The position numbers were made by a program, and so were the translations under genes. Source: Nemertoderma westbladi (Eukaryota > Animalia > Xenacoelomorpha). Taken from it: a stretch of DNA of 64,000 bases. Where the stretch lies: contig JAUCBJ010007223.1 of NCBI GenBank assembly GCA_032718475.1, positions 1,885 to 65,884 on the forward strand. The letters run 5' to 3'. Under the pieces are notes generated by a model. That model was not told where the DNA came from, searched no databases, and worked only from the letters and a program-made list of their open reading frames with translations. Shown here one piece after another: positions 1-27,596 of the stretch (positions are counted from its first letter, which is position 1; each line of letters starts with the position of its first letter).

Positions 1-2
1 TC

Positions 3-2939
3 CGATGTTTTCTCTCTGGACTGCTTGATGAGTTGTAGTTTTACTTCACCATCTAAGAAAGACATGGGATCAGCCATGGTAGGACTTCGTCGTTGTTGTT
101 CATTCATGTACAACACTTTCTTGTCCCAGCGTGTACATACTCCACCCTTTGGTAAAGTAGAGACTACGGCTCCAATAACCATGGAACTCTGATATTCATG
201 CGACTTACCTAACCAGTCCAGTTGTCTACAGATCTCTTGAATTTCATCGGAAAACTCTATAATCCCGCTACTAAGGAAGTGTCGGGGGGCTACTAATTTT
301 GCATACAAATACTTAGCTATGTTATCCTTGTTACCATACCTGATGTTTAATGTATCCCAAACTTGTCTTAATCCATCTGGATGTCCAATAAACTTTAACG
401 CCATTAACTTGGGAGGTCCTTCCAAGCACTTGATGAGGAATCTAAGTTTCTCTCCGTTAGATAGTACAGAGTTCTGTATGCTATCTTTGTAATATTCGTT
501 GAAAGGTAACCATTTCATCTCATCTCCATTGAATTTGACGATCTCTCCCACTTTGACCGCTTGGCGGGCTTCTGTTCTAGCCATCTGACGCGTAAAGCTT
601 TCTTGGGCCATCGTGTTATTTAATATCGAATTATCGGTATATAAATTTCTCGGATCATTATCAGGTCTATAGGGAATATCATTAATAACAGGTCTATAAT
701 CACCCTTAATAGGGTTTGCTATAGGAGTTTCAACTTCACTAGCAGTATAGATGCATGTAGGCTCCACACCTTGCGCATGTAATACTTCAGACCTAACAGG
801 TTGACACAATGTTACAGGGGGTATTGGTATGCCCTTTTGTATATTGACTAATTTGTCGCGTTCTAGCGCGATACTTTGCTGCACTTCTTGCAACTCTGCT
901 CTACCTTCCCTCACTGTTCCCTTAAGTTGGTGGACAGTCTCCTGCATCTGTCCTAGCAGGAGATTCATCCCCCGCCGTCCCTCTTCCACCCACTCAACCG
1001 CCGAAGCGGGAGTCGCCAACATAGTAGCGGGCTGACGCGGGACGACGGGAGACAAATTTTTGATTTCTCTCTCTGCTATCTGGACAGGGATATTCTCTTG
1101 GACTGTTCCACCGGGTACAGGCAGTGTAGTACTATGTAAAGGGAATTTAGAGTTAAGCTCTGGAAGTACAGGGGTCTCTAACACAGAAGTGACTTTGGGA
1201 ACGACAGGCCTAATTATCTCAGGCTCATCAACTATTGTAGAGAGTCTTTGGACCTTAATACTTTGGGCTGTAGGTTCTATACTACTCAAGTCTGTGCTAG
1301 CTAGCTGTCTTCTAACAGCTGGGGGCAAATCAGGCAATTTGCGACGGTAAGATGTTTTTCTACGCCTACTTAGATGAGATCTATTTCCTCCGCCTTCAGG
1401 ATCGGTAGTCTCGCCTTCCTCCGAGGATGTGTATCCCTGGCGCTTGGGAGTAGATTTTCTCATCATCTGCATTTGATTAGCAGTAAACTGTTTATTTATA
1501 CTGTCTTGCGTCTCTTGCAGATTTTCCAACTCCAATTGGATAGTCTCCTCAGAAGCTCTACGTTCTGCTTCTGCCACTGCTGCTTTTCTTTCTGCTTCTG
1601 CTTCTGCCGCCTTTCTTTCGGCTTCTGCTTCTGCCGACTTTCTTTCGGCTTCTGCTTCTGCCTCTGCCGCCTTTCTTTCGGCTTCTGCTTCTGCCGACTT
1701 TCTGTCGGCTTCTGCTTCTGCCGCCTTTCTTTCGGCTTCTACTTCTGCCGCCGCTGCTGCTGCCACCTTTCTTTTCTCTATCCGTTCTTTCTTTATTTGT
1801 TCTTCTCGGACTCTAGTGAGGCGGAGTTTTTCATCACATTCAGCTTGGTTTGCAGCTAACATTTCGGCATCGATTGAGTCCAACACAAGCTTGGTTCCTT
1901 CACTATTAGGGGAAAGTCCAGACAGCCGTCTCCTCAACTCTTCGTCTCCTAGGAATCGCTGATAGTCGGACAAATAAATGTCGATAGCGTCTCTAGTTCG
2001 CGGTTTCTCGGCGGTCTCTTCGCTTTCCGCTTGAGAAAGGGTGACATCAGTTTGTTCTTCATAGGTTGATCTCTCAGCCAGCTGGGATTTCCACTGGGCC
2101 GTTTCCTGTACTTTGAGATCTACCCGATGTAACCAAGTTTTGACAGCAACCTGCAGCGACGTGTCCTGTCTTCTTTTGGAAGTTTCCTCAAAGGCTGAGA
2201 GGATTAGTCGTATGCGTAGGGTTCTTTCGCATATTTGGTATAGCAGCTCTTCCTGCTCTTGAGTTCCTTGAGGTTGTCGAAACAGTTGTTCTTCCAATCG
2301 CTCCAAGGAGCCGAAGAATCCCTGCACATATCCTGCTGCCGACCTCTTCCAAACAGCTGGATCCATTGTATCTTTAGCCACTCCCATCCTGTGTATATCT
2401 TCCCAAGTAGCCTCGGACAGATCCAACGGGAGTCCGAGTCCGGGAAAGTTCCATTGTGACTCGACAATAGACATCAATTCTTCCCTGGCGTATCCCGCAT
2501 AATTATCTTGGGTCGCTCGCTTATTCCTCGCCCAGTCGGCTTGATGTTCCTCCACCGCAATGAATATAGTAGTTAGCACTGCAGCAGGAAGGGTAAGAAG
2601 GGGGTCCGAGTAGACTGTAGCAGCCATCTGCACTCCGCGTTCGGGGGTCAGCTCTACAGTATCCGAACTGCTGGAGCTATCGGGTTGCTGGGAAGTAGGT
2701 TCTTGACCAAGGTGTTGCTGCGATAGGACAACTGCCTCTTGGTTCCGTTTGACCTGTGCCCGAGTGCCTATGATGGACCTATGGTGGATTAGCCTAGGGT
2801 CTGATACTACTGGAGGGATGACCTTTTTTGCAGTAGGAGGTGAGTTGAACTCCTTTCTTAATCGCTCCACACTCCTATCTGTGTCACAGATAGTTGTATC
2901 GATCAGACTGTCTGACAGGTTTTGCTGAGTGTCAGACAT
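3..2939 (-). CDS. Gag-like polyprotein of copy A (N-terminal ~979 aa; open to the window edge, so absent from the ORF track)
   Basis: ATG at 2939 (MSDTQQNLSDSL...) reads without a stop into MAQESFTRQMARTEARQ at 611 (776 codons later). Homologous to ORFs 14577 and 20662 joined; includes a BEL-type Gag core (KFNGDEMKWLPF...LNIRYG). Confidence 0.88.
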   Translation of the reverse strand, partial: MSDTQQNLSDSLIDTTICDTDRSVERLRKEFNSPPTAKKVIPPVVSDPRLIHHRSIIGTRAQVKRNQEAVVLSQQHLGQEPTSQQPDSSSSSDTVELTPERGVQMAATVYSDPLLTLPAAVLTTIFIAVEEHQADWARNKRATQDNYAGYAREELMSIVESQWNFPGLGLPLDLSEATWEDIHRMGVAKDTMDPAVWKRSAAGYVQGFFGSLERLEEQLFRQPQGTQEQEELLYQICERTLRIRLILSAFEETSKRRQDTSLQVAVKTWLHRVDLKVQETAQWKSQLAERSTYEEQTDVTLSQAESEETAEKPRTRDAIDIYLSDYQRFLGDEELRRRLSGLSPNSEGTKLVLDSIDAEMLAANQAECDEKLRLTRVREEQIKKERIEKRKVAAAAAAEVEAERKAAEAEADRKSAEAEAERKAAEAEAEAERKSAEAEAERKAAEAEAERKAAVAEAERRASEETIQLELENLQETQDSINKQFTANQMQMMRKSTPKRQGYTSSEEGETTDPEGGGNRSHLSRRRKTSYRRKLPDLPPAVRRQLASTDLSSIEPTAQSIKVQRLSTIVDEPEIIRPVVPKVTSVLETPVLPELNSKFPLHSTTLPVPGGTVQENIPVQIAEREIKNLSPVVPRQPATMLATPASAVEWVEEGRRGMNLLLGQMQETVHQLKGTVREGRAELQEVQQSIALERDKLVNIQKGIPIPPVTLCQPVRSEVLHAQGVEPTCIYTASEVETPIANPIKGDYRPVINDIPYRPDNDPRNLYTDNSILNNTMAQESFTRQMARTEARQAVKVGEIVKFNGDEMKWLPFNEYYKDSIQNSVLSNGEKLRFLIKCLEGPPKLMALKFIGHPDGLRQVWDTLNIRYGNKDNIAKYLYAKLVAPRHFLSSGIIEFSDEIQEICRQLDWLGKSHEYQSSMVIGAVVSTLPKGGVCTRWDKKVLYMNEQQRRSPTMADPMSFLDGEVKLQLIKQSREKTS

Positions 2940-4299
2940 GTTTAGCTATACAGTTGAATGTCTACTACTATAGTTTCAGTTAAAGCAAGTCTGGTAATTC
3001 AGTATGACCGCAAGCCTAGCGATTTATTACCGATACCGTTACTCGGTGTAACATGATATATATACAATATATTAGAATGCCGGTATGCTTATAATATATA
3101 TAAGTATTATTACAGACTAGATTTGTCACAGAGTACCGGTATATAATTTTAGCACAAATATATATAAATATATAATAGGCCTATAGTGAATACCGGTATA
3201 CAGCTTACACTTATAGTATATATAAATATAATTATGAACTAGAATTAATTACAGAATACCGGTATGATTTCAGCTCAAATTTATAGAAATAAATATAATA
3301 AGCCTATGGTAAGTACCGGTATGTCAATTATTTTTAGAATAATTAAATTTCTGAATATTCTAAGGTTACTTGGTTACTTTAACTTACTTTATTACCGTTA
3401 TTTAAGCAGTAGTTCAACTGATATTGAGACCTAGTTGTTGTATGGCAGGCCTACTATTTATAAATCGTTTGAGTTGATTTATAATAGATATATACCCGTT
3501 TAAAAGGGGTTTTGTCAATATTTGAAATAAATGTTATTATTTCTGGGGGAGTCACTACACAGAAGCTGTACGCTCTCAGTGAAGTGTTACTTATTGAGAC
3601 ACTAAAACTGATAATTCTAATTTACTTAAGTTACTTAATACTACAAATTACTTACGATACGGGTGAGATTAATTCTCTAATTAAACACAACAAAAATATT
3701 ACGTACAAAATTTTTAGGGTAATTTTACAGGAAGTCTACAAACCAGCCTAACAAAGGGTTAGAATTCTGGTTATTACAACGGACAGGGTACTACGGTATT
3801 TGAAATAATAAGTAGTAGTAAATATATTGCACTGTCCAGATAGGAAAATACCACCGCCTGACGACCTATAACCGTATCGCTATAGGTACTACGTTATGTA
3901 TCACGGAGTGTTCCTACCCAGAAGTTAATAGAGCTAACGAATGTGCCTATCAACCACTTTACAACACAAATATACTGCCTACACACTAATTACTCTCGGA
4001 AGCACTGTACGCTAAACCCTAAATTAGGTACAAGTACTGGTACAACAAATAATCAGTAGTTAAATATACTTGAACAGTTAAAAGAACCACGGCATCTGCT
4101 GGAGTGACCAGAGCACAAAGTCACCAGTCTTGTCCTACGCCAAGCAGCCCGTGTAGTACCGGGGTTAATTTAACTATAACGGTATGTATAACAAGCACAA
4201 TTACTGTAGGGATAAACTTGGGGACATGAATGTTGCGAATAATCGCATAAACTCTGAATAATAAATATTACGCTACCCGTACAGAATACTCAAACAAAA

Positions 4300-4840
4300 T
4301 ACAAACCAAACGCTGGCAGACTACCACCAAGCCTAAATAAACTACCGTACGTGTAGCTTCTGAAATGGTTAGTTAGTATGCGTTCTAACACGGTAGTACG
4401 ACTTATTCTTTAAGAGGGGATTGACCTTACAGCATATGGCTGCCCCAACTTACTAACGGCACTTTATCAGACAAACTCCACACATACAGCAATCTCTTCA
4501 GACCTAATAATAGCTAGACAACAATCCAGCCTACAAAATATCTGAGTAATAACTATTACGGTACCTGAACAGACCACACAAACAAACACAGGCTAAAACA
4601 CTGGCAGACTACGATCAAGCCTAAATAAACTACAGTATATGCAGATTCTGAAATAGTTAGTTAGTATGCGTTCTAACACGGTAGTACGACTTATTCTTTA
4701 AGAGGGGATTGACCTTACAGCATATGGCTGCCCCAACTTACTAACGGCACTTTATCAGACAAACTCTACACACGCCGTAATCTCTCTAAACCCAACAACA
4801 GTCAGACAGCAGCTCAGCCTACAATTATCTGAACAATCTG
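4300..4840 (-). repeat. ~288-bp tandem duplication in the leader of copy A
   Basis: GCGTTCTAACACGGTAGTACGACTTATTCTTTAAGAGGGG recurs at 4380 and 4668; boundaries approximate. Confidence 0.8.
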
Positions 4841-5187
4841 AGCAGGGTCACACGCCTTCTGCTCAATATTAGCCTACTAGTAAATAAAACCGACAGAAAT
4901 AAGTAGAATCTCAATAAAAATTCAGGGCTGCAGTCCCTGATTAAGTACTAAGACCTACCGGTATACACTAATCAAATTCGAATAATACTAATGTACTGAT
5001 ACAGCAGTACCGGTTAGGACAGTTGGGCCTACAGACCTACAGAAGTACCGGTTCTGGCAGTTGGACCTACGGACCTACAGCAGTACCGGTTCTGGCAGTT
5101 GGGCCTACTGACCTACAGAAGTACCGGTTCAGGTTTACCGGTCACTACGGTATTTTGCAACCTTATTGCTTACTGCAATAAGATCGT

Positions 5188-5197
5188 TAACTGTTAT
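5188..5197 (-). promoter_or_regulatory. Non-tRNA primer-binding site candidate of copy A
   Basis: Minus-strand ATAACAGTTA directly follows the LTR end and is complementary to LTR-internal 5962-5971. No TGG tRNA-type PBS is present. Confidence 0.65.
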
Positions 5198-6416
5198 TGT
5201 TCGCGCTTTTGAAGACCTTTAGCAGTTTAACCTGCCAAAATTTATATGTCTTTTAGTTAATTAAAACACCTTTAGCATACGACAATATTTTATGCTAATA
5301 AACAAAACATTAGCCGAAGTCAGCCCATGCGCGATTATTCACCCGATGGCTACGCCCGGGAGGCTGAATTCGGATGCTTAAATTTTATTATTGCAGTGTA
5401 AGGTTGCAGTGTAAATCTACTGTATTATTCAATTGATCACTAATATATAATTTCTGACAGATATTATTAGCTTTCGGGAAATATTAACAGTTCCTTTAGG
5501 ACGTGGCGCTCTATCTATTTAAACAGAACTAGGACTTATACTAAACGCAACGATACTGCTTATGATTAAAGTATAAGGCGCATTCTTTAGGAAATGCTTT
5601 GTTACCAATCACAATCATGCACACTATTCTGCCGACCGTCAGTAAATTTGATCACACATAAAGAGAGCAGCAATTGACTCATGTAGGGTCTGCTAAATAA
5701 CATTAGATTCAATACACGCCACATTGATATAAAATCGCAATTGTTATGTATAGCCTGTCTCTCTAACCTGTAGTGTATCAAGAAAATTGGGAATTTTGGG
5801 TGATTTATCCGTATTCTCCAAAGAGCAATATTTCCTCAATAAATCGATACAATTAATAACTGACGGTAAATAACAGTACAAACAATATAATTAATAAGTA
5901 AAGTTCGGAAGAATAATATGATTATTAGTGAGTTAGTTAGGTAGGTAGGTAGGTAGGTAGGATAACAGTTATACTTTCGATAATTTAAGCAGTTTTACTA
6001 GAGTTCTTCCCAAAAGCCGGTGTTATGGCGAAAAATGGGAACACAACAACAGAATCATATGAAGAATCATATGACTAGATGACTATACGAGGATACCAAC
6101 TACCCTTATTCCCCGAAGCTCCCGTCCAACACAGAGGATGAGCATACAGATAGGAAATTCAGTTCAGTAGCTCTGGGATAGGTCAAAATCAACGCCCACT
6201 CAAATTCTATTGGCCGATACGGACAGCAGGGCTGAGGCAACCTCCCTAAGCTGGTTGGCCGATTAAACGGAGCCCAGATACCTTCGTACAGCACATCAGC
6301 CAATAAGCTGGTAGCTTGCACTATTTTGCTATAGATCCCTTTTAGAGTATTCTAGCGACCGGGGGGGAACTGGCCAGCAAGGCAAACGAATCAGTTATCC
6401 CACAAAAGCTTTTACA
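5198..6416 (-). repeat. 5' LTR of copy A (1219 bp)
   Basis: Minus-strand TG...CA termini match the copy B LTR ends; the downstream ~770 bp aligns with 10690-11447. Confidence 0.85.
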
Positions 6417-7420
6417 GCTCAATTACAAGACGTGCGTGACGTCACTGTGACGTCACTGTACTCACGGTGAAAGCAAAGTCCATCAAATATGAGATGGCTC
6501 TGTTCAAGTGTCAAGTTAGGGGGATGGGGGTGGGGTGGTGTTGGGGGGGGGGGGATGAGCAATGAGACACCTCCAATGTTATATAGTGCATTGTACTTGG
6601 CATAATGAACCCAGTGAACTATTCTTGTTGAACAGTTAGAGCCCAGCGTCTAGTAGGTCTACATAAAAGTGGAAAATATTGATGGAGTTCCACCACTTCC
6701 CTGATTCTGATAATCGAAGCCACATACGGTAAGTAGCACATTTGTTACAGTTACATTTTGGCATCTAGCGGTTGATAAATAAAATATAAACATTAAACAA
6801 ATTACAATAGAATAGGTTACAGTTTTATTTTTGAGAGTAATCAGCTGTTATTTGCGTCAAATTTCCCCTGGAGAGGGATTAATTTTTATTGCGTCCAGTT
6901 TTATTGCTCCCTCTCTGAGTCATTTAGTTATTTTATGAGTTATTTGTCCACGGGGAGTTAACGAAACCCTCTGCTAAAAAAAAAGGCTGATAAATAATGT
7001 CATAAGGATATAATGAGATTTACAAGAGTCTCAATTGTCAAACACTGTAAAATAATATATGCGCTGAACCATAAAGAAAATAATAATTAATATTTAGGGT
7101 TTGTTGATAATTACTTAAAGACAGCGAACCTGCTAATTTTAAATTATTGCTTATACAAAATGGTGTCATTGCGTTACGGGTACTGTCGCGCTACGGCTAA
7201 TTATCGCGTTACGGCTATACTGTCTTGGTTTTACATAAGGAATCATTATCAATATTATTCTATGGTAAATATAAATTAATACTTTTCAATTGTGCTTATT
7301 TCTTTTGATTATTTTAGTATAATAATTAAAAATATATATATAATATTCTATGGTGTTTACGTACAGATGAGCTGCGAATAATTTAATGTAATAATGTTTT
7401 ACAGCATGGGGGGGGGGGGG

Positions 7421-7625
7421 TGTAAAAGCTTTTGCGGAATTGCCCGGTTATTTTTCCTTATTTTTCCCGTAAAATACTCTGTAGTTGGTTTAGTAGGCGT
7501 AAGAGGCCGTATTATTGCTGTATCGGTGTTTTTTAGAGGACCTAAGAGCTATTTCTTCCCTATGTGCACTTTGGAAGACATGGTTGGTGATTCTATGGCA
7601 ATTCTATGACGCAAAAGGGGCTAGA
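7421..7625 (+). repeat. 5' LTR of copy B, left segment
   Basis: Matches 26377-26581 with 3 substitutions. Confidence 0.9.
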
Positions 7626-7801
7626 CGGTCAGGGCCCTAAACCGATTAGGTTCTCTGTTCGCAGAACACCGAACACTATTCCGGCCACGGAACTAGTCCA
7701 GCAGAATGCCTTTATAGAATCCTGGGATTTGTGGGACGAGAGGATCTCAGCAACTAAGCGAAAACGAACAATAGGATGTTCCTAGACCCCCCCCCCCCAA
7801 A

Positions 7802-9630
7802 ATTTATCTAGAAGACTTTTTCCCATATACATTACGTTTCAAAAGTCTACGGTTCTCCGGCTAGGGCCAATTTGAGTCAAAAAGTCAGCCTCCCTAGCAA
7901 CCTCGTTGCTATGGAGATAAGTCCAGAACCGCTAATGCTACGGACTTGGGACCGGCGCCAAACTGTAGGCAGCATATGGGTTTACCTTCACAGAGCTTTT
8001 TTTTGGAGCGATCAGATCATGATCTTGACCATGATCAGCAAAGATCAGTTTTGATCAGCAATCGGACACTCAAGGCTTGCTCCAATCGAAAAACTTAACA
8101 TTACAAAAAGATTCAGCGACCCCACATTAGTCATGATTCCCGTTAAAAGATTTTAAAAAAAGTGAATTCTTACTGGTCAAAACGCAAGATCATGATCGCG
8201 CAAAGATCGGACTTCGTAAAATCGTAACTAAGCATTTTGGATATAAACAATTACTGTAGGAAACGTTCAGAACACCGCCTTGAGTCGATTAAAAAAAAAA
8301 TTGGCTCAATCGGACAACCGGTTCTCGAGATCTGATACCTGATCATTAAAGATCATATTTTTCGGTTTTTTCCAATTTTCTCGAAAACTTTGTTTGAGAC
8401 CCCCGATTTTTTTTTTACGAATCGACTTCTATGGTGAAGGGGCAACTTTTAAGCATTTCGAAATTTTCAAAAAGCGATTTGATCAGGCCGCGATCAGAAA
8501 AGATCGTGTTTTTGGTTTTATTTCGAAGACCAAGTCCTGGGAGTTCACCGTATGGAAAAACTTAACATCACAAAAAGATTCCTCACCCTCGAATTATGGG
8601 GGGTAGCCAAAATTTGGGCATAAAAAAGTTCAAGTCTAGTGGGTCAAAACTCAAGATCATGATCGCGAAAAGATCAGTGTACTTAAAATCGAATCTAAAC
8701 ATTTTTTTAATAAACATTTATTGTAAGAAATGTTCAATGGTCTATTCTGAGTTGATTAAAAAAAAAATTGGCTCGATCGGTCAACCGGTTCTCGAGATCT
8801 GATACCTGATCATTAAAGATCATATTTTTCGGTTTTTTCCAATTTTCTCGAAAACTTTGTTTGAGACCCCCGATTTTTTTTTTACTAATCGACTTCTATT
8901 AAGAAGGGGCAACTTTTAAGCATTTCGAAATTTTCAAAAAGCGATTTGATCAGGCCATGATCAGGAAAGATCGTGTTTTCGGTTTTATTTCGAAGACCAA
9001 GTCCTGTGAGTTCACCGTATGAAAAAACTTAACATTACAAAAAGATTCCTCACCCTCGAATTAGGGGGGGTAGCCAAAATTTGACCATAAAAAAGTTCAA
9101 TTCTAGGGGGTCAAAAGATCATGATCGCGAAATGATCATTTTTTCGAAATTACTTCTGAGCATTTTGGAGCAAAACTGTCAAATTAAAAAACATTCACTG
9201 GAGTGTTCTAAGTAGATTAAAAAAAATTTCGACTCAATAGGCCAACCGGTACCGGAGATATGGTCGTCCAAAGTCTGCTTCCGGTAATTCGAAAATATTT
9301 CGAAAACCCTTGATCGAATTTTTTCCTTGAAAATATGTGAATGTACAGTTAGTGGACCCGCATCTAACGATATATCACAATCCATATTTCAGATGACAGG
9401 TACCGGTGAAATCAGACTTTACCGAAAAAAATTTAAATTTTTGCTACTCATGTCTGACTATCTCGAAAACTATAATAGGTATGGAAATACTTTCACTGCA
9501 AGAAATGTTCGCCTATCCAATGCGCTTCTAACTCTGTGCTCGGATTTTGCATAGTGTCAAAACCTACAACTTAACCCCCCCAGCGGAGGGAACGGAGTGA
9601 CCGGAGCGCCAGTACTATCTTTCATTATTA
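7802..9630. mobile_element. Probable non-autonomous element with internal ~465-bp tandem repeats (HINE/Helentron-like), inside the 5' LTR
   Basis: About 3 units (TTGGCTC...CAACCGGTTCTCGAGAT at 8301 and 8768, diverged at ~9229), no ORF, GC-rich terminal motif at 9576-9617. Family and boundaries are inferred. Confidence 0.4.
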
Positions 9631-10430
9631 TGAAGTAATAAGGGCGGTGGGTGGGGTAGGTGGTGAACACTATTTATAGGGTGGAGGGAGGGTCTAGTAT
9701 ATTACTTTAGGATATTTGATTTCTTTGCAATATAGTTTAGCTGCCTCAGTCTTATTTGTAATATGTTATACATTATACCAAATTATATCAAGTTTTAACA
9801 TACTACATTGTCTACCTGTAGGAGAAATATACAATGTAGGGCTCATAATATATTTATAAATAGATTTAGTATATTTACATTGTATAACAGAGTTAATTGA
9901 TACTATTACGGTATTATACTAAAGACGCCGCTTTGATATATCTAATCAAATGGCAATTTCTTGTATATTATCTATTTCCCTATCTTGGGTATATCATTCA
10001 ATTTCTAAAACTATAATAATAAACATTTACTTCACTTCTTGTTTACTCGCATGGATATATTGATATAAAACACTTCAGTATAATATGTTATAGGGCCGAA
10101 CGCAGATTAATCGGAATAATATGTTTAATTATTATTACAATTGGCACATTGATGTAAGTAGTACATGAGTTTGATAAAATAATTATGAATCTGTATCTTA
10201 TTCTACTTTGTCTATATGATTATGTTATATAATAATGTTACTTTATCACTTTGGTTTAAACCGATCTCCTTTACTATTACTTACTACTTATACTACTACT
10301 ACTACTACTATTACTACTACTGCTACTGACTACTACAGAGTTATATATTATAAGAGGACGGGGTTCGTGATTATTAGTTATTATACAAGTGCCCCTCGGC
10401 TATAGAGAGTCCACCCTCGGTTGCTTACTG

Positions 10431-11447
10431 GATACTCTTGAACAGTAGTTACTATGACGACGGTTAACAGCTGATATTCATACGTGTCGATTTTCTTTGT
10501 TCTACGGCTTCTCTTAGTTCAGTCAACCAATCAGAGCGTTTTTACGGCTCTTGTACAGAAATTTCCGAGAAATCACGCAATGCATTATGGGCAGTGTTAT
10601 CATTCTGTCCTGAGCCAGGAAGAACGGCTTTGGAATATTTTGTGCTGTTCTGCTTTTAGCCTAACACTAGTAGGCTTAATTATAAGGACATATATCCGTT
10701 ATCTGTGCAACTCAATACTTACCTACTAACCTAACTCAACTGGGCAATGCATATATCTTGTTGTACATACTTTTATATTGTTATACTGCTATTTACTGTC
10801 GATTATTCATTATATGGTGATGAAATATTATATTGGAATAACGAGAAATAACCCCGAAAACCCAATATTCTTGATATACCGAAGGTAAGAGAGACAGGTT
10901 ACATATAACGATTGTGACTTATGTTAAAGTGGTTTGAAGTGAATCTAATGTTATCTGATAGACCCTACATGAGTCGGTCTGTGTTCCTTTTATATGTGAC
11001 TAAAATCAGTGAAGATCGGCAGATCAGTGTGCAGTATTGTGCAGCATTGTGTATGAGTGAGACTGATAACGAAGCATTTCCTAAAGAATGCGCCATATAT
11101 GTGAATTGTAACTAAGCCATATCGTTGCGTGTAGTTTAAGTCATAACTCTGTTTATATAGATAGAGCGCCACGTCCTAAAGGAACTGCTAATATTCCCCG
11201 AAGGTGAATAATATTGTCAGAGATTATATAACACGATCAGTCGAATAATACAGTAGGCTTACATAGCAATACGATTAAGCCGTCGAACCCAATCTCCCGG
11301 GTATATCCAGCGGGTGAATGATCGCGCACGGATTGGTTTCAACTAGTGTAGTGAATCAAATACTTGTCAGAGGCTAAAAGCGATTTATTATCTAGAAGAC
11401 ATCCTAATTTGGCGGGTTAAACTGCCAAAGGTCTGAAAGCGCGAACA
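10431..11447 (+). repeat. 5' LTR of copy B, right segment
   Basis: Appears identical to 26580-27596 at a constant offset of 16149; the three short ORF-track translations in each are identical. Confidence 0.93.
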
Positions 11448-11462
11448 ATAACGGATATATGT
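11448..11462 (+). promoter_or_regulatory. Non-tRNA primer-binding site candidate of copy B
   Basis: ATAACGGATATATGT directly after the LTR is the exact reverse complement of ACATATATCCGTTAT at 10688-10702. Confidence 0.7.
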
Positions 11463-11638
11463 GTCTGTATTGCAGTGTAGGCATTAAATACAGTTTAATA
11501 TTGTTCTGGTAAGAACAATAACGGATATCGCTTCTGTATTGCAGTAGGCAATAAAGCTGAAGTACCGGCAACCGGTACCCAGTAGGCCTGACTACCTAAC
11601 CACCCGGACCGGTACCTACAGCAGTACAGGTACAGCAG

Positions 11639-12504
11639 TAGGGTTCGATCGGTGCCAAAATTTTGCCGGTGCCGGTGCCGGTGCCGGTGTCACATTGTAA
11701 ATGCCGGTGCAGGTGCCGGTGCCGGTGTTTTTAAATGTTGGGCAAATTTGGCGTAATTCTATTTGAAAACGAAATAATATAAATTTTTGTGTAATCTATG
11801 TCTATTACATTAGGCCACACGCACACCTAACCCTGTCACCTAATGAAATGCAGAAATGAGGCAGTGATGCAGTAAAGTACCACAGTCACAGATTGACAGA
11901 AGGTACAGTACAGCAGTAGCTCAGTAGCTGGCCGACTATGTACTGATCAATTTCTGAATTAATATTGAAATAGCTTAACCCAGCTGTCCAGCACACGGGT
12001 ACAGCAGCAGAGCAACAATAAGTACGTACAATTCTACAATACTGTAAAATTATGATGTCACGCATTTATATAAAATGGTTTAGATTTACAATAAAATGAA
12101 TATAAAAGTTTAAATAAAACGATTGCATTAAAATTATTTGTGTAGGCCTACAGTTACAGTAGGCCTACAGTATTTATATATTACATAAAATACAGAAATA
12201 ACATAGTGTATCAGTTTTACACTAAGTAAGGCGTTATGATTCTGGGCTACCCTACCACTAGTCAAGTCACTAGACTGCTAGACCAGTAGACAGACAGTCA
12301 AACAGCTATAGCCAGATAGCCTTGCTGCCTTGTAGCTGACTGATAGCTTAGCCAGGCTGTCTGCAGTACCGGTACTGCAGTAGGCTTCAATTTTAACAGC
12401 AGCCAATCATTTTAAAAAACACCGGCACCGGCAATGTTTTTGCCGGTGCAGGTGCCGGTGCCGGTGGTGCCAAACACCGGTGCCGGTGCACCGATCGAAC
12501 CCTA
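11639..12504. mobile_element. hAT-type MITE (866 bp)
   Basis: TIR TAGGGTTCGATCGGTGC / GCACCGATCGAACCCTA; 8-bp TSD TACAGCAG (11631-11638 and 12505-12512); subterminal (GCCGGT)n; absent from the copy A leader. Confidence 0.92.
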
Positions 12505-13245: not shown

Positions 13246-14576
13246 TCAGAGTTTATGCGATTATTCGCAACATTCATATCCCCAAGTTTGTTCCTACAGT
13301 AATTGTGTTTGTTATATATACCGCTATAGTTAAATTAACCCCGGTACTACACGGGCTGCTTGGCGTAGGTAAAGACTGGTAATTTTGTGCACCGGTCACT
13401 CCAGCAGATGCCGTGGTTCTTTTAGCTGTTCAAGTATTTTTAACTACTGATTATCTGTTGTACAAGTACTCGTACCTAATTTAGGGTTTAGTGTACAGTG
13501 CTTTCCGAAAGTAATTAGTGTAGGCATTATATTTGTGTTGTAAAGTGGTTGATAGGCACGTACGTTAGCTCTATTAACTTCTAGGTAGGAACACTCCGTG
13601 ATACATAACGTAGTACCTATAGCGATACGGCTATAGGTCGTCAGGCGGTGGTATTTTCCTATCTGGACAACGCAGTGTATTTACTACTACTTATTATTTT
13701 CAAATACCGTAGTACCCTGTCCGTTGTAATAACCAGATTTCTAACCCTTTGTTAGGCTGGTTTGTAGACTTCTTGTAAAATTACCCTAAAAATTCGTATT
13801 TGTGTTTTTTTGTAAATTTTTGTGTTTATTTAGAGATTGAAATCTCACCCGAATTGTACGTAATTTGTAGTATTAAGTAACTTAGGTAAATTAGAATTAT
13901 TTGTTTTAGTGTCTAACAAGTAGCACTTCACTGAGAGCGCACAGCTTCTGTGTAGTGACTCCTTCCCAGAAATAATAACATTTATTTCAAATACTGACAA
14001 AACCCATTAAACGGGTATATATATATTATAAATCAAATCTAACGATTTATAAATAGTAGGCCTACCATACAACCATTAGGTCTCAATATCAGTTGGACTA
14101 CTGCTCAAATAACAGTAATAAAGTAAGTAAAGTAACCAAGTAACCCTAAAATTCAGAAATTCAATTATTTAAAATAATTGATATACCGGTATTTACGATA
14201 GGCCTATTATCTTTATTTCTATAAATTTAGGCTGAAATTATACCGGTACTGTAATTAATTCTAGTCCAGAATTATACTTATATATACTACAAAACAAACT
14301 GTAAGCTGTATACCGGTATTCCCGATAGGCCTATTATATATTTATATATATTTGTGCTAAAAATTATACCAGTATTCTGTGATAAACCTAGTCTGTAATA
14401 ATACTTATATAGTTATATATACTATAAGCATACCGGTATTCTAATATATTATATATATATCACGCTACACTGAGTAGCAGTATCGGTAATTAATTACTAG
14501 GCTAGCAGTTAATACTGAATTACTAGACTTGCTTAGACTGTAATATAGCAGTAGGCATTCAACTGTGTAAACAAAC

Positions 14577-16719
14577 ATGTCTGATACTAAACAGAACCTG
14601 TCAGACAGTTTATTAGATGTAACTATCTGCGACTCAGATAGGAGTGTAGAACCGTCTGGACCTAAATTCAGTTCACCTCCTACTGTGAGGAAGGTCATCC
14701 CTCCTGTAGTAATATCAGACCCTAGGCTAATCCAACACCGTAGGTCTATCATAGGCACTCGAGCTCAGGTCAAGCGGGACCAAGAAGCAGCGGAACAACA
14801 ACAACCCGCGAGCCAAGAACTTATTTCTCAACGGCCCGACAGCTCCAGTAGTGAGGATACTGTAGAGCTGACACCCGAGCGCGGGGCAAAGATGACGGAT
14901 GCGGTTTATTCGGATCCCCTTCTCATCCTTCCTGCAGCCGTACTCATTAGGTTATTGATTGCGGTGGAAGAACACCAGATCGATTGGGCGAGAAGTAAGC
15001 GATCGACTAAAGATAGTTATGCGGGATACACAAGGGAAGAACTGAAGTCTATTGTCGAGTCGCAATGGAACTTCCCCGGACCCGGACTCCAGTTTGATTT
15101 ATCAGAAGCTGTCTGGGAAGATATACACAGGATGGGAGTACCCAAGGAAACCATCGATCCAGCTGTGTGGAAGAGGTCCGCAGCCGGATACGTACAGGGA
15201 TTCTTCAGCTCCATGGAGCGAGTAGAAAAACAACTGTTTCAACAACCACAAGGACCTCAAGAGCAGGGACAGCTGCTTTATCAAGTTAGAGAAAGAATTC
15301 TACGAATCAGGCTAATCTTATCGGCCTTTGAGGAGGCTTCTAAAAGAAAACAAGACACGTTGTTGCAAGTTGCCGTAAAGACTTGGTTTCAACGGGTGAG
15401 TCTCCAAGTTCAAAGAGCTGCCCCGTGGAAATCGCAGTTAGATGAGCGCTCAACACTTGGAGAATCCACAGACGCTACCTTTTCCCAAGTGGAAAGTGAA
15501 GCGACAGCAGAGAAGCCGCATAAGAGGGATGCCATTGACATCTATCTGTCAGACTATCAACGTTTTTTAGGAGATGAAGAGTTGAGGAGAAGGTTAGATG
15601 GACTTAGCCCTAATAGTGAAGGAGCCAAGCTTGTGTTGGACGCAATCGATGTGGATAGGATAGCTGCGAACCAAGCTAAATTTGATGAACAACTCCGCAT
15701 CGCTAGAGTCCAAGAAGAACAAGTCAAGAAAAAACGAATAGAAGACAGAAAGATAGCGGCCTTGGCAGCTGCAGTGGCAGAAGCAGAAAGAAAAGCGGCT
15801 TTGGCAGCTGCAGTGGCAGAAGCAGAACGAAAGGCGTCTGAAGAGACTGCCCAACTAGAGTTAGAAAATCTTCAAGAGAGGCAAGATAACTTTAATAAAC
15901 AGTTAACAGCTAGTAATATGCAGATGATGAATCGATCTACTCCCAAAAGACAGGGATATACATCATCTGAGGAAGGCGATACCACCGATGCTGAAGGCGG
16001 GGGAAATAGATCTCATCTAAGCAGACGTAAAAGAACATCCCACCGTCAGAAATTGCCTGATTTGCCTCCAGCTGTTAGAAGGCAACTAAATAACACCAAC
16101 TTAGGTAGTACAGAACCCACAGACCAAATAATTAAAATAGAAAGACTCCCTACTATAGTAGATGAGCCTGAAATAATTAGGCCTGTTCTTGAAATCACCC
16201 CTTCAGTGATAGACACACCTGTGCTCCCTGAAGCTACCTCTAAATTCCCTCTGCACAGCACTAAGCTACCTGTGCCCAGTAGAACAGCCCATGAGACAGT
16301 GCAGGTCCTGGACCCTGAGCGAAATATTCATGATTTGTCGCCCGTTGTCCCTCGTCCGCCCGCTACAACGTTGGCGACTCCCGCTTCGGCGGTCGAATGG
16401 GTGGACGAGAGACGGCGGGGGATGGATCTCCTGCTCGGGCAGATGCAGGAGACTGTTCAGCAATTCAAGGGCACAGTAAGGGAAAGTAGGCTAGAGTTGC
16501 AAGAAGTGCAGCAAAGTATCGCGCTAGAACGCGATAAATTAGTAAATACACAAAGGGGTATACCACCACCCTCGGTAACAATGTGTCAACCTGTTAGGTC
16601 TGAAGTATCTCATGCGCAAGGTATGGAGCCTACACGCATATATACTGCTAGCAAAGTAGAAACTCCTATAGTGAACCCTATTAAGGGTAATTATAGACCT
16701 GTTGATAATGACATTCCCT
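14577..16719 (+). pseudogene. Gag-like polyprotein of copy B, N-terminal part (interrupted by a LINE)
   Basis: Homologous to the copy A ORF up to ...NDIP; the last 17 codons of the 731-aa track ORF come from the LINE. Confidence 0.88.
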
Positions 16720-16825
16720 TCAATTTGAATTTCCCACTATTGACAAGATTTAGGGCCTACACCCAGCACTGACATACAGACATACACGGGTTCATTTATT
16801 ATTAATTGACAATTATTACTGTATT

Positions 16826-19800
16826 ATGGCACTACTCGTGGTAATGGCGGTTCTCGTTATGGTTGGTCGATTGCTGGCGGCAGATGTAATTCCTGTGAGA
16901 AAGGATCCGGTGAGCCTTCAACCAATTCCCGTATTGGATGTCTTCACAGTGTTCCAAATCAACGGAGAATATCGTGGCTGGCGACTACCAACTGTGGCGG
17001 ATCTCTGGACAATGAACGGTGTGAGTCTCTTTGCTCGAAGTAGGAGGAATGCTGGTCCAGTGAGATTTAGTGGGTGGACTTCCCAACTCTGCGCGTTGAT
17101 TCTTGCTGGAGATGTCGAGGTAAATCCAGGGCCTAGCAGGACGATGAAGAAGACCTGTGCGATATGTAAACACGGAGCAAACTCGCGAAGCAAGATCGTT
17201 GAGTGCGAGAAATGTGTAACCTTTTCCCATGCCAAGTGCTACCGTAGGTCTTTAAATAAATATTCCACCCTCAGAAACAGTAACAGCCCAATTTATTTTT
17301 GTAACAGTTGTATTCTATCTGAACTCCCATTTTTTGAAGATTCCTTAGATAACGAACTTGACGAACCTATCGCCTCACCCTTGCAACAACCAAGTGAGGC
17401 CGAGGGTGATACCTTCCAATATTTTAAGAGAAAAGGCTTACATTTTCTACATCTAAACGTGCGATCTTTGCTTCCAAAAATATCGGAACTTAAAATTCTA
17501 TCAGTTAAAACGAACGCCGCAATAATCACAATTTCCGAAACATGGCTGGATGATACTGTTTCTGAGGAGGTGAGGTACACATTAATAACTATGTAATTGT
17601 ACGCAAGGATAGGAATAGGGATGGAGGCGGGGTGTGTATGTACATCAGGAATGACTTAGCTTTTAATCGTAGAGAAGAATTAGAGACTTGCGATGAGATT
17701 TTACTGCTCGAACTTTTACTACCAAAAACTAAACCAATTATTATCGCTAGCGTTTACAGGCCGCCAAAACAAGATAATTTTTTAGAAAATCTAGAAAATA
17801 AAATCTTAGTGAATCTTAGGTCTGACTGTGAATTTTATTTATTAGGAGATTTTAATATTTGTTTTCATCAAAAAGCCTCAGCTATTTGTAGAAAATATCA
17901 AAGTGTTCTGAATTTATTTGGTTTAAAACAATTAATAAGTGAATCAACTAGAATTACAAGTAAAACTTCCACCCTATTAGATCATATTGTTATTAATAAT
18001 AGAGATATGGTATCTCAGTCTGGTGTTTTATCTATAGGTGTAAGTGATCACTTTATTGTTTTTTGTACAAGGAAATCTCAAAAGTATTTTTTTGGGGAAC
18101 ATAATACTGTCAAAATTAGGTCTTTAAAGAACTACAGTAAGCAACAATTTATAAATATTTTAACTAACTCCAACTGGGAACCATGTTTTAAGGCAGCTAA
18201 TATTAACCTTGCTTATGCAATTTTTAAAAATTTATTTTTGAACGCTCTTGATTCTGTAGCACCCATTAAAGAAGTTCACTTAAAACAAAGAACAGAACCG
18301 TGGATGACTGCTAATATTCTTAAGGTTATAAAGGATAGGGATTGCTTATTGTATAGATTTAGAAAATATGGTATTTTAACTGATTATAATAATTACTGTA
18401 GGTTAAGGAACTTAGTACAGCGTGAAATTAAAAAAGCGAAATCCGAATTTTTGTACAACAAAATTGATGAAAATAAGGATAATCCAAAATCACTTTGGAC
18501 GACATTAAAATCTTTAGGGTATAAAAGCACAAATTCAAAATCGAATATAGTCTTGCAGGAAAACGGGGAGCTCATTCATGAGCCTAAGATTATAAGTAAT
18601 TTATTCAATAACTATTTCATTAATGTAGCCTCGAATCTTGTCCAAAAATTGCCAATTGCTAAAAATAAATACAGTCTAAATTCGGAAATACTAAACAAAT
18701 TTTACTCGGAAAAGGTTAAGAATTCTCCAAAGTTATTTTTACAGCCTGTCTCAGAAGCTTATGTATTGAAAAATCTTGTCAGTATTTCGTCATCTAAAAG
18801 TACTGGACTGGACCAGATTCCAGCAAGGTTTCTTAAGGATGGTGCGGAAGTGCTAAAGATTCCTATTACTTACATAATTAACTACTCAATTTTAGAAAAT
18901 GTAGTCCCGGATGATCTTAAATTGGCGAAGGTTGTTCCAATATTTAAAAAGAACAGTAAATTAGAAACCAGTAATTACAGGCCCATTAGTGTGTTAAGTA
19001 TTGTATCCAAAATTCTTGAACGTTCAGTGTACACTCAGCTAGAGTTCCATCTTAACAAACTCAATTTAATATACGAATTTCAATCTGGCTTCCGTAAATC
19101 TTACTCTACAGATAGTTGTCTAATCAATTTGACGGATAATATTAGGTGTAACAACGCGAAGGGATTGTATACCGGTATGGTAATGTTAGATTTACAGAAG
19201 GCCTTTGACACGGTTGATCACGAAATATTACTAGGAAAACTAGATCTTATGGGTGTGGGCTCAATTAATTGGTTCAGGTCATACTTATCAGATAGGGGTC
19301 AAGTTGTAGATATAAATAAAACTCAGTCCTCAGTTCAGAAAATTAAGTGTGGAGTACCGCAGGGTAGCATCTTAGGGCCGTTGCTGTTTGTATGTTACGT
19401 AAATGATATGATTAGTAGCATAGATCCGGACTTTAAACTAATATTATACGCTGATGATAGTGCATTAATCTTTTCTCACAGGGACCCGGACACAATTTGT
19501 GAAAAACTAGGCAAAGTTCTAGAATCCTGCAACGAATGGCTCATCGATAATAAGCTTTCAATTCACTACGGCAAAACTGAAAATATTTTATTCGGCTCGA
19601 AAAGAAAATTAAACAAGTTCCGAAACTTTGAAGTAATTAGCAACGGCCACAAAATTGAAAATAAAAAAGAAGTTAAATATTTAGGCTCCAAATTGGATTG
19701 TAGTTTATCCGGAGAAAGCATTGTTAAAAATATTATTGCAAAAGTTAATGGCAGACTAAAGTTTCTTTATCGACATAAAAATAGCCTAAATTTTAATTCT

Positions 19801-20304
19801 CGTAGGTTGCTTTCTTCATCTTTAATTCAATGTCATATTGACTATGCAAGTTCATCTTGGTATGAAGGCTTAACTAAAAATCTCAAAAATAGGTTACAAA
19901 CAGCTCAAAACAAGGTAGTACGTTTTATTAATGATTATAAACCACGTCACCATTTAACCCCTGAAGATTTTAATCAGTCTGGTTTAATTAAAGTAGACAG
20001 TAGAGTAAAGCAGCTTCGGCTCAACCATGTACATAAAGTTTTCAATGATAACTGCCCTAAATACTTAAATCAAAAATTTACCAAACTGAGTGATACACAT
20101 TCATACGGCACCAGAGCCAGCACATCAAATTTTTATGTTCCCAATTGTATATCCTTTGAAAGCGAAACGTTTTTCTTTAATGGAATAAAGAATGGGAATT
20201 CCTTACCGAATAACATTAAAAATATTAAAAATGAACATGCCTTTAAGTCTGCAGTAAAATCCCATCTCCAAGACCAGTGCAAATTCTTATATAGCAGTAT
20301 TTAG
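16826..20304 (+). pseudogene. LINE ORF: leader, 2A peptide, PHD-like finger, APE endonuclease and reverse transcriptase, with one frameshift near 17570
   Basis: GDVEVNPGP; CAIC...CEKC...HAKC...CNSC; HLNVRSL, ISETWL, then a frame change to RKDRNRDGGGVCMY, YRPP, GDFN, SDH; RT motifs DLQKAFDTVDH, GVPQGSILGP, YADD, YLG. Confidence 0.92.
17108..17134 (+). other. 2A-like ribosomal skipping motif GDVEVNPGP
   Basis: Matches the D(V/I)ExNPGP consensus and is preceded by hydrophobic LCALILA; codons 95-103 of ORF 16826. Confidence 0.85.
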
Positions 20305-20602
20305 TTTAGTTCAATATTAAATAGGTGCATGTGCAATAATTAGTAATAATGTTCAATTTTGTATTTCTTGTATCTTATTTAGTTTAAATTATATAATTAT
20401 TCTATATACAGTAGTTAGTTTAGTTTGTATTGGTAACCAAGTAACTTGAAGGACCCCCTTGGAAATAAGCTGCAAAGCTTTAGGGGTTATCCTTTATGTT
20501 ATGTTGGACAATACTTACTATACATTAATAATTTTACTGAGTTAATGTATTGGTTTCTATTGTTTGCATAATATATAAATAAATCTATCTATCTATAACC
20601 CT

Positions 20603-23115
20603 ATAGACCTGATCATAATCCGAGAAATTTATATACCGATAACTCGATATTAAATAACACGATGGCCCAAGAAAGTTTTACGCGTCAAATGGCTAGAACC
20701 GAAGCCCGGCAAGCGGTAAAGGTGGGAGAGATCGTCAAGTTCAATGGAGATGAGATGAAATGGTTACCTTTTAATGAATATTATAAAGATAACATTCAGA
20801 ACTCTGTACTATCTAATGGAGAGAAACTTAGATTCCTCATCGAGTGCTTGGAAGGATCTCCCAAGTTAATGGCGTTAAAGTTTATTGGACATCCAGACGG
20901 ATTAAGACAAGTTTGGGATATACTAAACATCAGGTATGGTAATAAGACTAACATAGCTAGGTATTTATATGCGAAATTAATGGCGCCCCGAAAGTTTCTT
21001 AGCAGCGGGATTATAGAATTTTCCAATGAGATTCAGGAGATCTGTAGACAGCTAGATTGGTTAGGTAAGTCTCATGAATACCAGAACTCTATGGTTGTAG
21101 GAGCCTTAGCATCTACTTTACCAAAGGGTGGAGTAGGTACACGCTGGGACAAGAAGGTGTTATATATGATGGAACAGCAACAACGAGACCCTACCATGGC
21201 TGATCTCATGTCATTCCTAGATGGAGAAGTGAAATTACAGCTCCTAAAACAGTCTAGAGAGAAGACACCGGAAAACAAGGTAAGTGAGAAACCCGTTTCT
21301 AGGAGAAAGGTAATACCAGTTTGTTATACAGACGACGGCGAAAGCCAGGCTTCTCAAGAGGAAGACAGCGGAAAAGACACTGAAAGATCTTACTATGACA
21401 ATAAAATGCCTAAAGACCAGGTAAGTAAATCCAAGTCTCGACCCAATGACAGAAGAGAACCGGTAAGAAAAACCCCTCCTACGTCTCCCAAGAGAATTCA
21501 TGTAAGAAAGCCCGAGGAAAGAACAAGTGTGCACCACACAGCACAGGTTAAAGTAAGTAACATCAAACCCAAATGTGTGCTGTGCGACGGGCCCCACCGC
21601 TTGAATATGTGCGATGAATTCTTAAAGAAATCATTAAAAGAGAGACGGGAAGTCATGTGGGATAAGCGGTTGTGTTATAATTGCCTCAGACGAGGACACC
21701 AACGGCGAACCTGTTACTCCGACGCAAGGTGTGCAAAGTGCGGCGCAAAACATCATATCTTGTTGCACACGGAATTCGAACGAAACAGCCCGAGTCAGGT
21801 AAGTGAGTCCGAACTACATGTCCAATTCAGTGATGTGAACGACACTGATCAATCTGAGATGGAAGGATTCTATACGGATGAGTTCTCCGACGAAAACGAA
21901 TCCTGTTACCTGACAAATACCGCAGTGTATCGAGCACTCATGTATGAGAAAGACACAGACAGCGACCTCACCCTAACTACTTCAGATCAACAACAATCTT
22001 GGAAAGCGCCAACTTCAAATGTAGGAATCCGAGAATTTCCTGTAGTCCAGTTACGGGTCCACGGACCTCAGAAGAGCTATATAGTGAACGCCCTCCTGGA
22101 CTCCGGTAGCACAGGAACATTCATCGATAAAGAACTAGCCGAAGTCATCTTTGCTGGACAACCCAAGTTCCGAACCAAGCTAAACATGTCAGGGATCATG
22201 CAGGTTTGGAATTCTACTGTAGCTGCCGACTATTATATAGGTGAGTTGTCCACTCCACAGGATAAACTAGGAGAATACAGTATAAGGTCAGTAAAAATGG
22301 TGGCAATAAAGAACTTCGCTACCACCCAAGTGGAACCTTATAATTGGGACGAAGATGATCATGTCCAACAACTTAACATCCCTAGATTCGACACCGATTA
22401 TCCTGGAGTACAAATATTAATCGGTCAAAACGCGCATGAGGCGCTGGAGACATTAGAGAAACGACCTACTCAACCGCAACCACTTCAGACCTATGCGGTA
22501 AGAACTAGAGTAGGTTGGTACCTTACTGGACCTTCCCGTAGAACGCTCAGGGAAAGACTGCTTCAAGATCGCGTCTGCCAGGTGAGTGAATGGGAAGACG
22601 ATACTAGTGAGGGAGACGACCCAACTGAGGGAACACCACACTCCTCAGATAATGACAATCTTAACTCCAATGTAGATCAATGGAGATATTGCCCCAAGAC
22701 GATGAATATAACTGACATCGCTTCCAGAGGAGCAACTCCTCAAGAACTGACAGATACTACAGACCGGTTAGGTGAACCCGACTTCCTGAGTAAGGAGGAT
22801 GAATGGCCTCCCCATCTTACTCCGACTGAGATTAGACCAGCCAAGGGAGCGGAGAAAGTCAAACCTAAAACCCGGACGGGTGGATCGGAGTTATTTGAAC
22901 CCGGGATAGATCTGTCGGTATTACATATTGCCAGGGACGACGCCGTGGATCTGGACCTCCCCACCGCGAGTGGATCCTTCATGAAGATCAGAGAGAGCGA
23001 TTGGAGCTCTGGAACATCAGACGTCTCGCAGGGACTCTTACCTCTCCTGCAGGGAGCGACGGACCACTATAGCTCCTGGAATCGGCTTTGTAAGGCCGTC
23101 GTGTACTTAGAGTGA
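20603..23115 (+). pseudogene. Gag core, Zn knuckles, aspartic protease and RNase H C-terminal remnant of copy B (RT deleted)
   Basis: CVLCDGPHRLNMC, CYNCLRRGHQRRTC, CAKCGAKHHILLH; ALLDSGST; ILIG; then directly QWRYCPKTMNITDIASRG and YSSWNRL, which are BEL/Pao post-RT motifs. No YxDD and no integrase. Confidence 0.88.
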
Positions 23116-26368: not shown

Positions 26369-26376
26369 GGGAGCGG
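26369..26376 (+). promoter_or_regulatory. Polypurine tract
   Basis: GGGAGCGG directly before the TG of the 3' LTR. Confidence 0.6.
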
Positions 26377-27596
26377 TGTAAAAGCTTTTGCGGAATTGCC
26401 CGGTTATTTTTCCTTATTTTTCCCGTAAAATACTCTGTAGTTGGTTTAGTAGGCGTAGGAGGCCGTATTATTGCTGTATCGGTGTTTTTTAGAGGACCTA
26501 AGAGCTATTTCTTCCGTATGTGTACTTTGGAAGACATGGTTGGTGATTCTATGGCAATTCTATGACGCAAAAGGGGCTAGATACTCTTGAACAGTAGTTA
26601 CTATGACGACGGTTAACAGCTGATATTCATACGTGTCGATTTTCTTTGTTCTACGGCTTCTCTTAGTTCAGTCAACCAATCAGAGCGTTTTTACGGCTCT
26701 TGTACAGAAATTTCCGAGAAATCACGCAATGCATTATGGGCAGTGTTATCATTCTGTCCTGAGCCAGGAAGAACGGCTTTGGAATATTTTGTGCTGTTCT
26801 GCTTTTAGCCTAACACTAGTAGGCTTAATTATAAGGACATATATCCGTTATCTGTGCAACTCAATACTTACCTACTAACCTAACTCAACTGGGCAATGCA
26901 TATATCTTGTTGTACATACTTTTATATTGTTATACTGCTATTTACTGTCGATTATTCATTATATGGTGATGAAATATTATATTGGAATAACGAGAAATAA
27001 CCCCGAAAACCCAATATTCTTGATATACCGAAGGTAAGAGAGACAGGTTACATATAACGATTGTGACTTATGTTAAAGTGGTTTGAAGTGAATCTAATGT
27101 TATCTGATAGACCCTACATGAGTCGGTCTGTGTTCCTTTTATATGTGACTAAAATCAGTGAAGATCGGCAGATCAGTGTGCAGTATTGTGCAGCATTGTG
27201 TATGAGTGAGACTGATAACGAAGCATTTCCTAAAGAATGCGCCATATATGTGAATTGTAACTAAGCCATATCGTTGCGTGTAGTTTAAGTCATAACTCTG
27301 TTTATATAGATAGAGCGCCACGTCCTAAAGGAACTGCTAATATTCCCCGAAGGTGAATAATATTGTCAGAGATTATATAACACGATCAGTCGAATAATAC
27401 AGTAGGCTTACATAGCAATACGATTAAGCCGTCGAACCCAATCTCCCGGGTATATCCAGCGGGTGAATGATCGCGCACGGATTGGTTTCAACTAGTGTAG
27501 TGAATCAAATACTTGTCAGAGGCTAAAAGCGATTTATTATCTAGAAGACATCCTAATTTGGCGGGTTAAACTGCCAAAGGTCTGAAAGCGCGAACA
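26377..27596 (+). repeat. 3' LTR of copy B (1220 bp)
   Basis: TGTAAAAGC...GCGCGAACA; equals 7421-7625 joined to 10431-11447. Confidence 0.93.

Follow-up and report, generated by a model that had tools for sequence, protein, structure and literature searches.

Results

A Non-autonomous BEL/Pao Element and a Second Copy of Its Family

The window, the whole 64-kb stretch of DNA that was analyzed, holds two copies of one LTR retrotransposon family. Copy 1, on the plus strand, extends from 7421 to 27596, and its 1220-bp LTRs, which run TGT...ACA, differ at 4 positions (99.7% identical). Copy 2 is a diverged second member of the family on the minus strand, with an LTR ∼72% identical to that of copy 1 in the 3′ part. 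The features of the two copies, with strand where assigned, are as follows.

Copy 1
7416-7420: left target-site duplication, a G-run with its right copy at 27597-27601; low-complexity, with an exact length that is not fixed
7421-11447 (+): 5′ LTR, TGT...ACA, 1220 bp minus the insertion; against 26377-27596, 3 differences in 7421-7625 and 1 in 10428-11447
7626-10427: later 2.8-kb insertion that splits the U3-like portion of the 5′ LTR, with near-duplicated 5-mer flanks
10682-10687 (+): TATA-like hexamer that abuts the complement on its upstream side, not kept at the homologous place in copy 2
10688-10702 (+): predicted self-primer, the stretch of the LTR to which the primer-binding site is complementary; exact pairing
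10703-11447 (+): predicted R/U5, a 745-nt loop with nested helices, from folding prediction and comparison with copy 2
11408-11429 (+): predicted hairpin near the LTR end, also in copy 2 with two one-sided changes (two sequences only)
11448-11462 (+): primer-binding site, directly after the LTR with no spacer and without TGG; exact pairing
11514-11528 (+): tandem second unit of LTR tip plus primer site, with an 11-nt match at 11518-11528
11639-12504: MITE in the leader, with terminal inverted repeats and an 8-bp target duplication; bypassed by contigs of sequencing run X1
14571-16720 (+): gag 5′ part, broken by a LINE
16720-20598 (+): inserted LINE (PHD, endonuclease, RT), ends approximate
20599-23115 (+): gag 3′ part (DUF1759, zinc knuckle), protease, then the RNase H end only
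26369-26376 (+): short purine-rich tract ahead of the 3′ LTR
26377-27596 (+): 3′ LTR, in which the complement recurs at 26837-26851

Copy 2
3-2945 (-): gag frame of 981 codons, open to the window edge
5188-5197 (-): primer-binding site ATAACAGTTA, with two compensatory changes relative to copy 1
5198-6416 (-): 5′ LTR, 1219 bp
5962-5971 (-): complement of 10 nt, at a position homologous to 10693-10702

The gag protein contains a DUF1759 domain (PF03564, E = 1.7e-12) and is accompanied by a Pao-type protease and Cys-His motifs, and the Pao family domain PF05380 is found in 18 of 19 homologs. The frame at 20599-23115 passes from the protease straight to the end of RNase H, with RT, most of RNase H and integrase missing. 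On the grounds of DUF1759, the PF05380 homologs and the missing RT and integrase, copy 1 is a non-autonomous BEL/Pao LTR retrotransposon. It also has the TG...CA direct LTRs, the target duplication (the G-run) and the purine tract, here a short one, of BEL/Pao elements; by the TGG check, neither copy has their 18-nt tRNA-Arg or tRNA-Gly primer site. The proteins are of BEL/Pao rather than Ty3/gypsy chromovirus type, which places the family outside the Tf1/sushi group.

Several insertions complicate the element. A contig of run X1 (share 0.08; a run whose kind is guessed, which may be DNA, and which was used as contigs only) joins 7604 to 10433, bypassing the 2.8-kb insertion. This insertion is without clear terminal inverted repeats, has a ∼470-nt internal tandem duplication (8085-9262) and a hairpin at its left end, and is possibly Helitron-like on the minus strand, although this is a guess. 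The MITE and the LINE sit within an element whose LTRs are 99.7% identical, and both may have been carried as cargo in the last retrotransposition. The leader comprises 3 kb before gag and holds ∼290-nt tandem repeats. In both copies (14571-16720; 3-2945 (-)), gag has an unusually long N-terminal extension of ∼750 residues with alanine/glutamate-rich repeats and no Pfam match. Elsewhere in the window, a GC-rich frame of 1219 codons at 44694-48353 has a weak RT match (RVT_1, E = 7.7e-05), a 26-bp satellite present in ∼400 copies lies at 50050-60700, and a repetitive, G-skewed region that contains open frames lies at 34900-38900.

The Primer-Binding Site Is Complementary to the LTR Interior

Minus-strand synthesis of an LTR element has to start at the LTR's 3′ end. 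In copy 1, the 15 nt that adjoin the 5′ LTR at this end (11448-11462, ATAACGGATATATGT) are the exact reverse complement of 10688-10702, a segment at LTR position 461-475 that lies 745 nt upstream of the LTR end, and pairing ends on both sides of this match. The LTR end itself, at 11447, is set by the 3′ LTR, which has an identical ending at 27596 followed by the G-run. TGG is absent 0-4 nt after the LTR end in both window copies. The 64-kb window contains no tRNA gene, and there is no Rfam tRNA match within 4900-28000; a sub-threshold Rfam match to RT-19 (E = 0.066; 28 bits against the 78 needed) was taken as chance.

With order-2 Markov sequences modeled on the LTR as the null, a match of at least 14 nt arose in 0 of 20,000 simulated LTRs (the maximum being 13 nt), and none of 30,000 window positions treated as fake primer sites attained 13 nt. 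A single X1 contig (n = 1) tracks copy 1 to 11459 and then resembles the tandem second unit of LTR tip and primer site, a unit that is not present in copy 2. A spliced complement was looked for in the window copies and not found.

The first-pass annotation had described a perfect 15-nt complementarity between primer site and LTR that stops at the LTR boundary, and a primer site that does not begin with TGG. All of this holds, as does its placement of the element in BEL/Pao, which the DUF1759 gag and the relatives with Pao domains confirm. Its picture of a self-complementary site stands, but the element is larger than the annotation saw, in both LTR length (1220 bp) and span (7421-27596).

Compensatory Changes in Copy 2

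In copy 2 the LTR has the ending ...GCGCGAACA as well, and the nucleotides after it, ATAACAGTTA, are the exact reverse complement of 5962-5971. Between the two copies the primer site differs at two positions, 6 and 8, and both changes are mirrored in the LTR segment; when each primer site is matched against the LTR of the other copy, only 5 and 6 nt pair. A 10-nt match anywhere in the LTR, with the homologous place not required, was reached in 182 of 20,000 simulations. The duplexes of both copies finish flush with the LTR end (zero offset), and both sites, with 15 and 10 nt, have the form expected of a Tf1-type primer site: an LTR-adjacent self-complement of at least 10 nt and no tRNA site. 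The covariation sample for the primer duplex is these two copies. Covariation between primer site and LTR, which had been proposed as a check on self-priming, is seen in one other copy, with two compensated changes at the homologous place.

Such covariation is automatically expected if the LTR segment is the primer, since plus-strand synthesis copies the primer into the primer site. Because copy 2 pairs over 10 nt and the tandem unit over 11 nt, the shared pairing core is 10-12 nt (15 nt in copy 1, 11-12 nt in other units and 10 nt in copy 2), and the 15-nt version may reflect a primer copied further than usual.

Predicted RNA Folding

For RNAs that start at the complement and carry a short 3′ context, the predicted probability of the primer duplex is 0.96-0.99 in both copies, with folding z scores of -3.1 and -2.9 (20 shuffles each). 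Across ten choices of start and end, the probability in copy 1 ranges from 0.0 to 0.99. In copy 2, where the duplex is weak (-9.0 kcal/mol), it is 0.0 with 100 nt of 3′ context and at most 0.1 with 45 nt of extra 5′ sequence. The folding is compatible with self-priming and is not proof of it. The hairpin at 11408-11429 is a possible counterpart of the Tf1 U5-IR stem.

An automatic alignment of the two sequences misregisters the 5′ edge of the complement, and its pair counts were excluded for the primer duplex. By eye, pairing of 11253-11272 with the leader also looked like a compensated helix; it was rejected, its predicted probability being 0 in copy 1 and 0-0.4 in copy 2. Two occurrences of the motif TCCTAAAG, at 11075-11095 and 11167-11188, fall in the LTR's most conserved part in both copies, and X1 contig depth peaks at 11152-11183; the repeated motif is possibly a packaging or structural signal.

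Signals for Transcription Start

The LTRs of copies 1 and 2 are 36%-50% identical in 50-nt bins over positions 51-450 and mostly 60%-95% identical from position 551 (one bin 50%). Since identity rises from low to high around the complement (461-475), this segment lies near the inferred U3/R border. An AT-rich stretch upstream of the complement is kept in both copies. In copy 1, an initiator-like motif at 10714 lies 32 nt after the TATA-like hexamer at 10682, and together these could place the start downstream of the complement, which would threaten a model with the primer at the 5′ end. The copy 1 LTR has neither AATAAA nor ATTAAA by which the end of R could be placed. Inside the predicted loop there are a site resembling a splice donor at 10885, weaker in copy 2, and one resembling an acceptor at 11160; no GT..AG joint within the LTR was found among the contigs of X1, a run that may be DNA.

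Relatives Carry Complements Across Predicted Splice Junctions

An alignment of seven full-length homologs retrieved 78 loci from metagenomes (confirmation covered the best 80 of 523), and another alignment retrieved 16 further loci from genome bins. The set compared here comprises the 11 loci, drawn in part from the best 80 of 523, in which both LTR 3′ ends are defined. Excluded were L018 (same LTR end as L020), L041, L059, L071 and L089 (ambiguous LTR end), L036, L066 and L088 (the repeat is not an LTR end) and the remaining loci, which are without a second LTR end.

Among the loci retrieved, TGG is absent in 10 of the 11 relatives with defined LTR ends. All ten TGG-less relatives have an 11-15 nt match to their own LTR across a predicted GTRAG..YAG junction, at offsets of 1-4 nt, while in L082, the sole TGG-type locus, the self-match is only 4 nt. 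Contiguous self-matches in the ten reach 6-8 nt, save in L053 (11 nt), and the contiguous zero-offset form is seen in none of them. Three of the ten (L012, L015 and L035) have a common primer core, so the set amounts to ∼7 independent types. When primer sites are paired with the LTRs of other loci, 149 of 156 cross pairs stay below 10 nt; the other 7 reach 10 nt, six of these within three related loci. Between L079 and L080 the three letters before the donor differ, and the primer sites change to match.

In each of the ten (L012, L015, L020, L035, L053, L055, L073, L077, L079 and L080), the primer site is complementary to the exon-exon junction of a predicted LTR intron of 76-451 nt. From this correspondence, the 5′ copy of the LTR would be spliced and the 3′ copy would retain the intron. 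When 68 of the 78 loci, near-duplicates included, were scanned without anchoring, a junction match was present in 21/68 against 1/68 in a reversed control, and contiguous matches stood at control level (16/68 against 15/68). A TATA box lies 36 nt upstream of the donor in L049/L077, which are one family, and predicts a start at the complement; such spacing was seen in none of the other 16 of 18 loci inspected.

The relatives are 19%-24% identical to the window element over gag-protease and form a separate clade. In a FastTree phylogeny of this region (39 rows, 468 columns), a 0.96 split leaves the window element and the splice-type loci on one side, with the window element outside their group, and the support for its nearest neighbor is only 0.57. 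That side is provisionally labeled Suzu/Sinbad/Sailor from its motifs, the tree containing no named reference sequences. Like the window family, the splice-junction relatives have a tRNA-less site complementary to their own LTR, with compensated change (L079/L080). Their complement would form only after intron removal, 44-278 nt from the LTR end and at an offset of 1-4 nt, whereas that of the window family is contiguous, 745-764 nt from the LTR end and at zero offset. The contiguous complement described in the first-pass annotation thus holds for the window copies and does not extend to the sampled relatives.

A conserved 25-nt LTR motif had 0 exact matches among metagenome contigs, and three scans of viral contigs found no BEL/Pao relative. 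Loci L079-L094 are BEL/Pao elements within prokaryotic genome bins, with L082, a complete copy of the TGG type, lying in a Wolbachia assembly; their presence there probably reflects host contamination or host-derived insertion.

Discussion

Proposed Mechanism and Alternatives

We consider it likely, from the pairing and its compensation, that the window family primes minus-strand DNA with its own RNA as Tf1 does, the first 10-15 nt pairing with the primer-binding site and then being cut. Transcription would start at or slightly before the segment at 10688-10702, and the first 10-15 nt of the RNA would fold onto the primer site, spanning a structured loop of ∼750 nt. The RNase H of an autonomous partner is predicted, as in Tf1, to cut after 10702, and the freed 3′-OH would sit exactly at the LTR end and prime synthesis. 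This Tf1-like mechanism is the simplest reading because the LTR 3′ end is where pairing with the element's own LTR stops, and that pairing is kept through sequence change. The window family would then be Tf1-like and contiguous, with a loop of unusual length. Self-priming had been inferred from copy 1 in the first-pass annotation; it now gains support from the covariation in copy 2 and from the 10 of 11 relatives that are tRNA-less and have self-complementary sites.

The start signals bear on an alternative in which the LTR segment primes in trans. Transcription would start near 10714, as the hexamer 32 nt ahead of the initiator-like motif in copy 1 suggests, and the primer would come from the 3′ LTR copy of another RNA (26837-26851) or from a short LTR transcript. 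The same segment is indeed present in the 3′ LTR, and the covariation fits this reading equally well. We nevertheless think it unlikely: the hexamer is not kept at the homologous place in copy 2, the TATA spacing in one related family favors a primer at the 5′ end, and, by established retroviral logic, cutting the template's own 3′ copy removes the repeat required for strand transfer. Somewhat less probable again is that the pairing is a structural switch, for packaging, dimerization or translation, which closes the leader while an unrecognized host RNA such as a tRNA fragment primes. The whole 750-nt stretch is predicted to be structured and is partly conserved, and the ICTV assigns tRNA priming to the family (PMC8742986). 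However, primer sites vary between copies and relatives, each tracking its own LTR, which is impossible for one host RNA; the duplex ends exactly at the required start of synthesis, TGG is missing, and the element has no tRNA gene or Rfam tRNA match.

If R instead ended with the complement, the RNA could prime with its own 3′ end, produced by cutting at the poly(A) site, with no need for a cap-proximal cut. This seems very improbable, given that neither copy has AATAAA or ATTAAA upstream of the complement or a GU-rich element downstream and that U5 would have to be ∼750 nt long. A chance match, or the scar of a one-off template switch, we regard as scarcely credible. The duplicated unit of LTR tip and primer site in copy 1 does point to a past aberrant event, but the independent compensated match in copy 2 already contradicts such an origin, as do the null simulations and the pattern in the relatives.

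Implications for the BEL/Pao Family

Self-priming in the window family thus remains our preferred reading. With a little more reserve, we think it probable that a large part of BEL/Pao self-primes free of tRNA through two architectures: a contiguous, cap-proximal primer with a ∼750-nt loop, and, in 10 of the 11 relatives sampled, a primer that forms once an LTR intron has been spliced out. If so, self-priming would be present in each of the three LTR superfamilies, it may be an old trait and not a peculiarity of chromoviruses, and the textbook account of how Belpaoviridae replicate would have to be revised. How BEL/Pao reverse transcription is initiated is assumed rather than known (PMC8742986), and a compensated, self-complementary primer site is a precise, testable prediction for a whole family of animal retroelements. 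Annotation of primer sites by tRNA matching would overlook such elements. The result also bears on whether self-priming or tRNA priming arose first in LTR elements, a question raised in the accessible text of PMC3601003, and the splice-junction form in the relatives would couple the start of replication to host splicing.

Comparison With Known Systems

The ICTV describes the Belpaoviridae primer site as an 18-nt site for tRNA-Arg or tRNA-Gly, and replication as poorly understood (PMC8742986). The window family resembles Belpaoviridae in its TG...CA LTRs of ∼1.2 kb, its gag with DUF1759 and zinc knuckle, its protease and its purine tract, and differs from the ICTV description (PMC8742986) in having no tRNA-Arg or tRNA-Gly primer site. 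The first-pass annotation knew of no account of self-priming in BEL/Pao, and none came up in the literature searched, chiefly open-access articles, so an earlier mention is possible. By term look-up, priming is not addressed in the available text of six BEL/Pao papers (PMC554778, PMC3118150, PMC6238403, PMC9094657, PMC8220671 and PMC12440569), and the available text of PMC5443660, PMC3601003 and PMC13524379 either mentions self-priming only for Tf1 and chromoviruses or does not mention it.

Self-priming is described for Tf1/sushi elements and Tcn1 and predicted for Copia TAR/Houba, according to the accessible parts of PMC6317226, PMC4600332 and PMC5341516. For the Copia TAR lineage (Houba, Osr-1), the prediction criterion given in the accessible part of PMC6317226 is a match of at least 10 nt beginning 0-5 nt after the LTR, which both window copies satisfy; unlike the window family, these are plant Ty1/copia elements with unrelated proteins.

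The closest mechanistic parallel proposed here is with Tf1, in which, by the accessible text of PMC7175516, the initial 11 bases anneal to the primer site and RNase H cleaves between base 11 and base 12. As far as the accessible parts of PMC7175516 and PMC4600332 describe them, Tf1/Tf2 of S. pombe, Tj1 of S. japonicus and the Tf1/sushi and Tcn1 chromoviruses (Ty3/gypsy) are likewise free of a tRNA site and have ∼10-15 nt beside the 5′ LTR that are complementary to the LTR interior. The window family belongs to a different superfamily, with a DUF1759 gag, Pao-type relatives and no chromovirus features seen. It further differs from the Tf1 group in that its start and cut are predicted from sequence, in being non-autonomous, and in the ∼750-nt loop that its primer would have to span.
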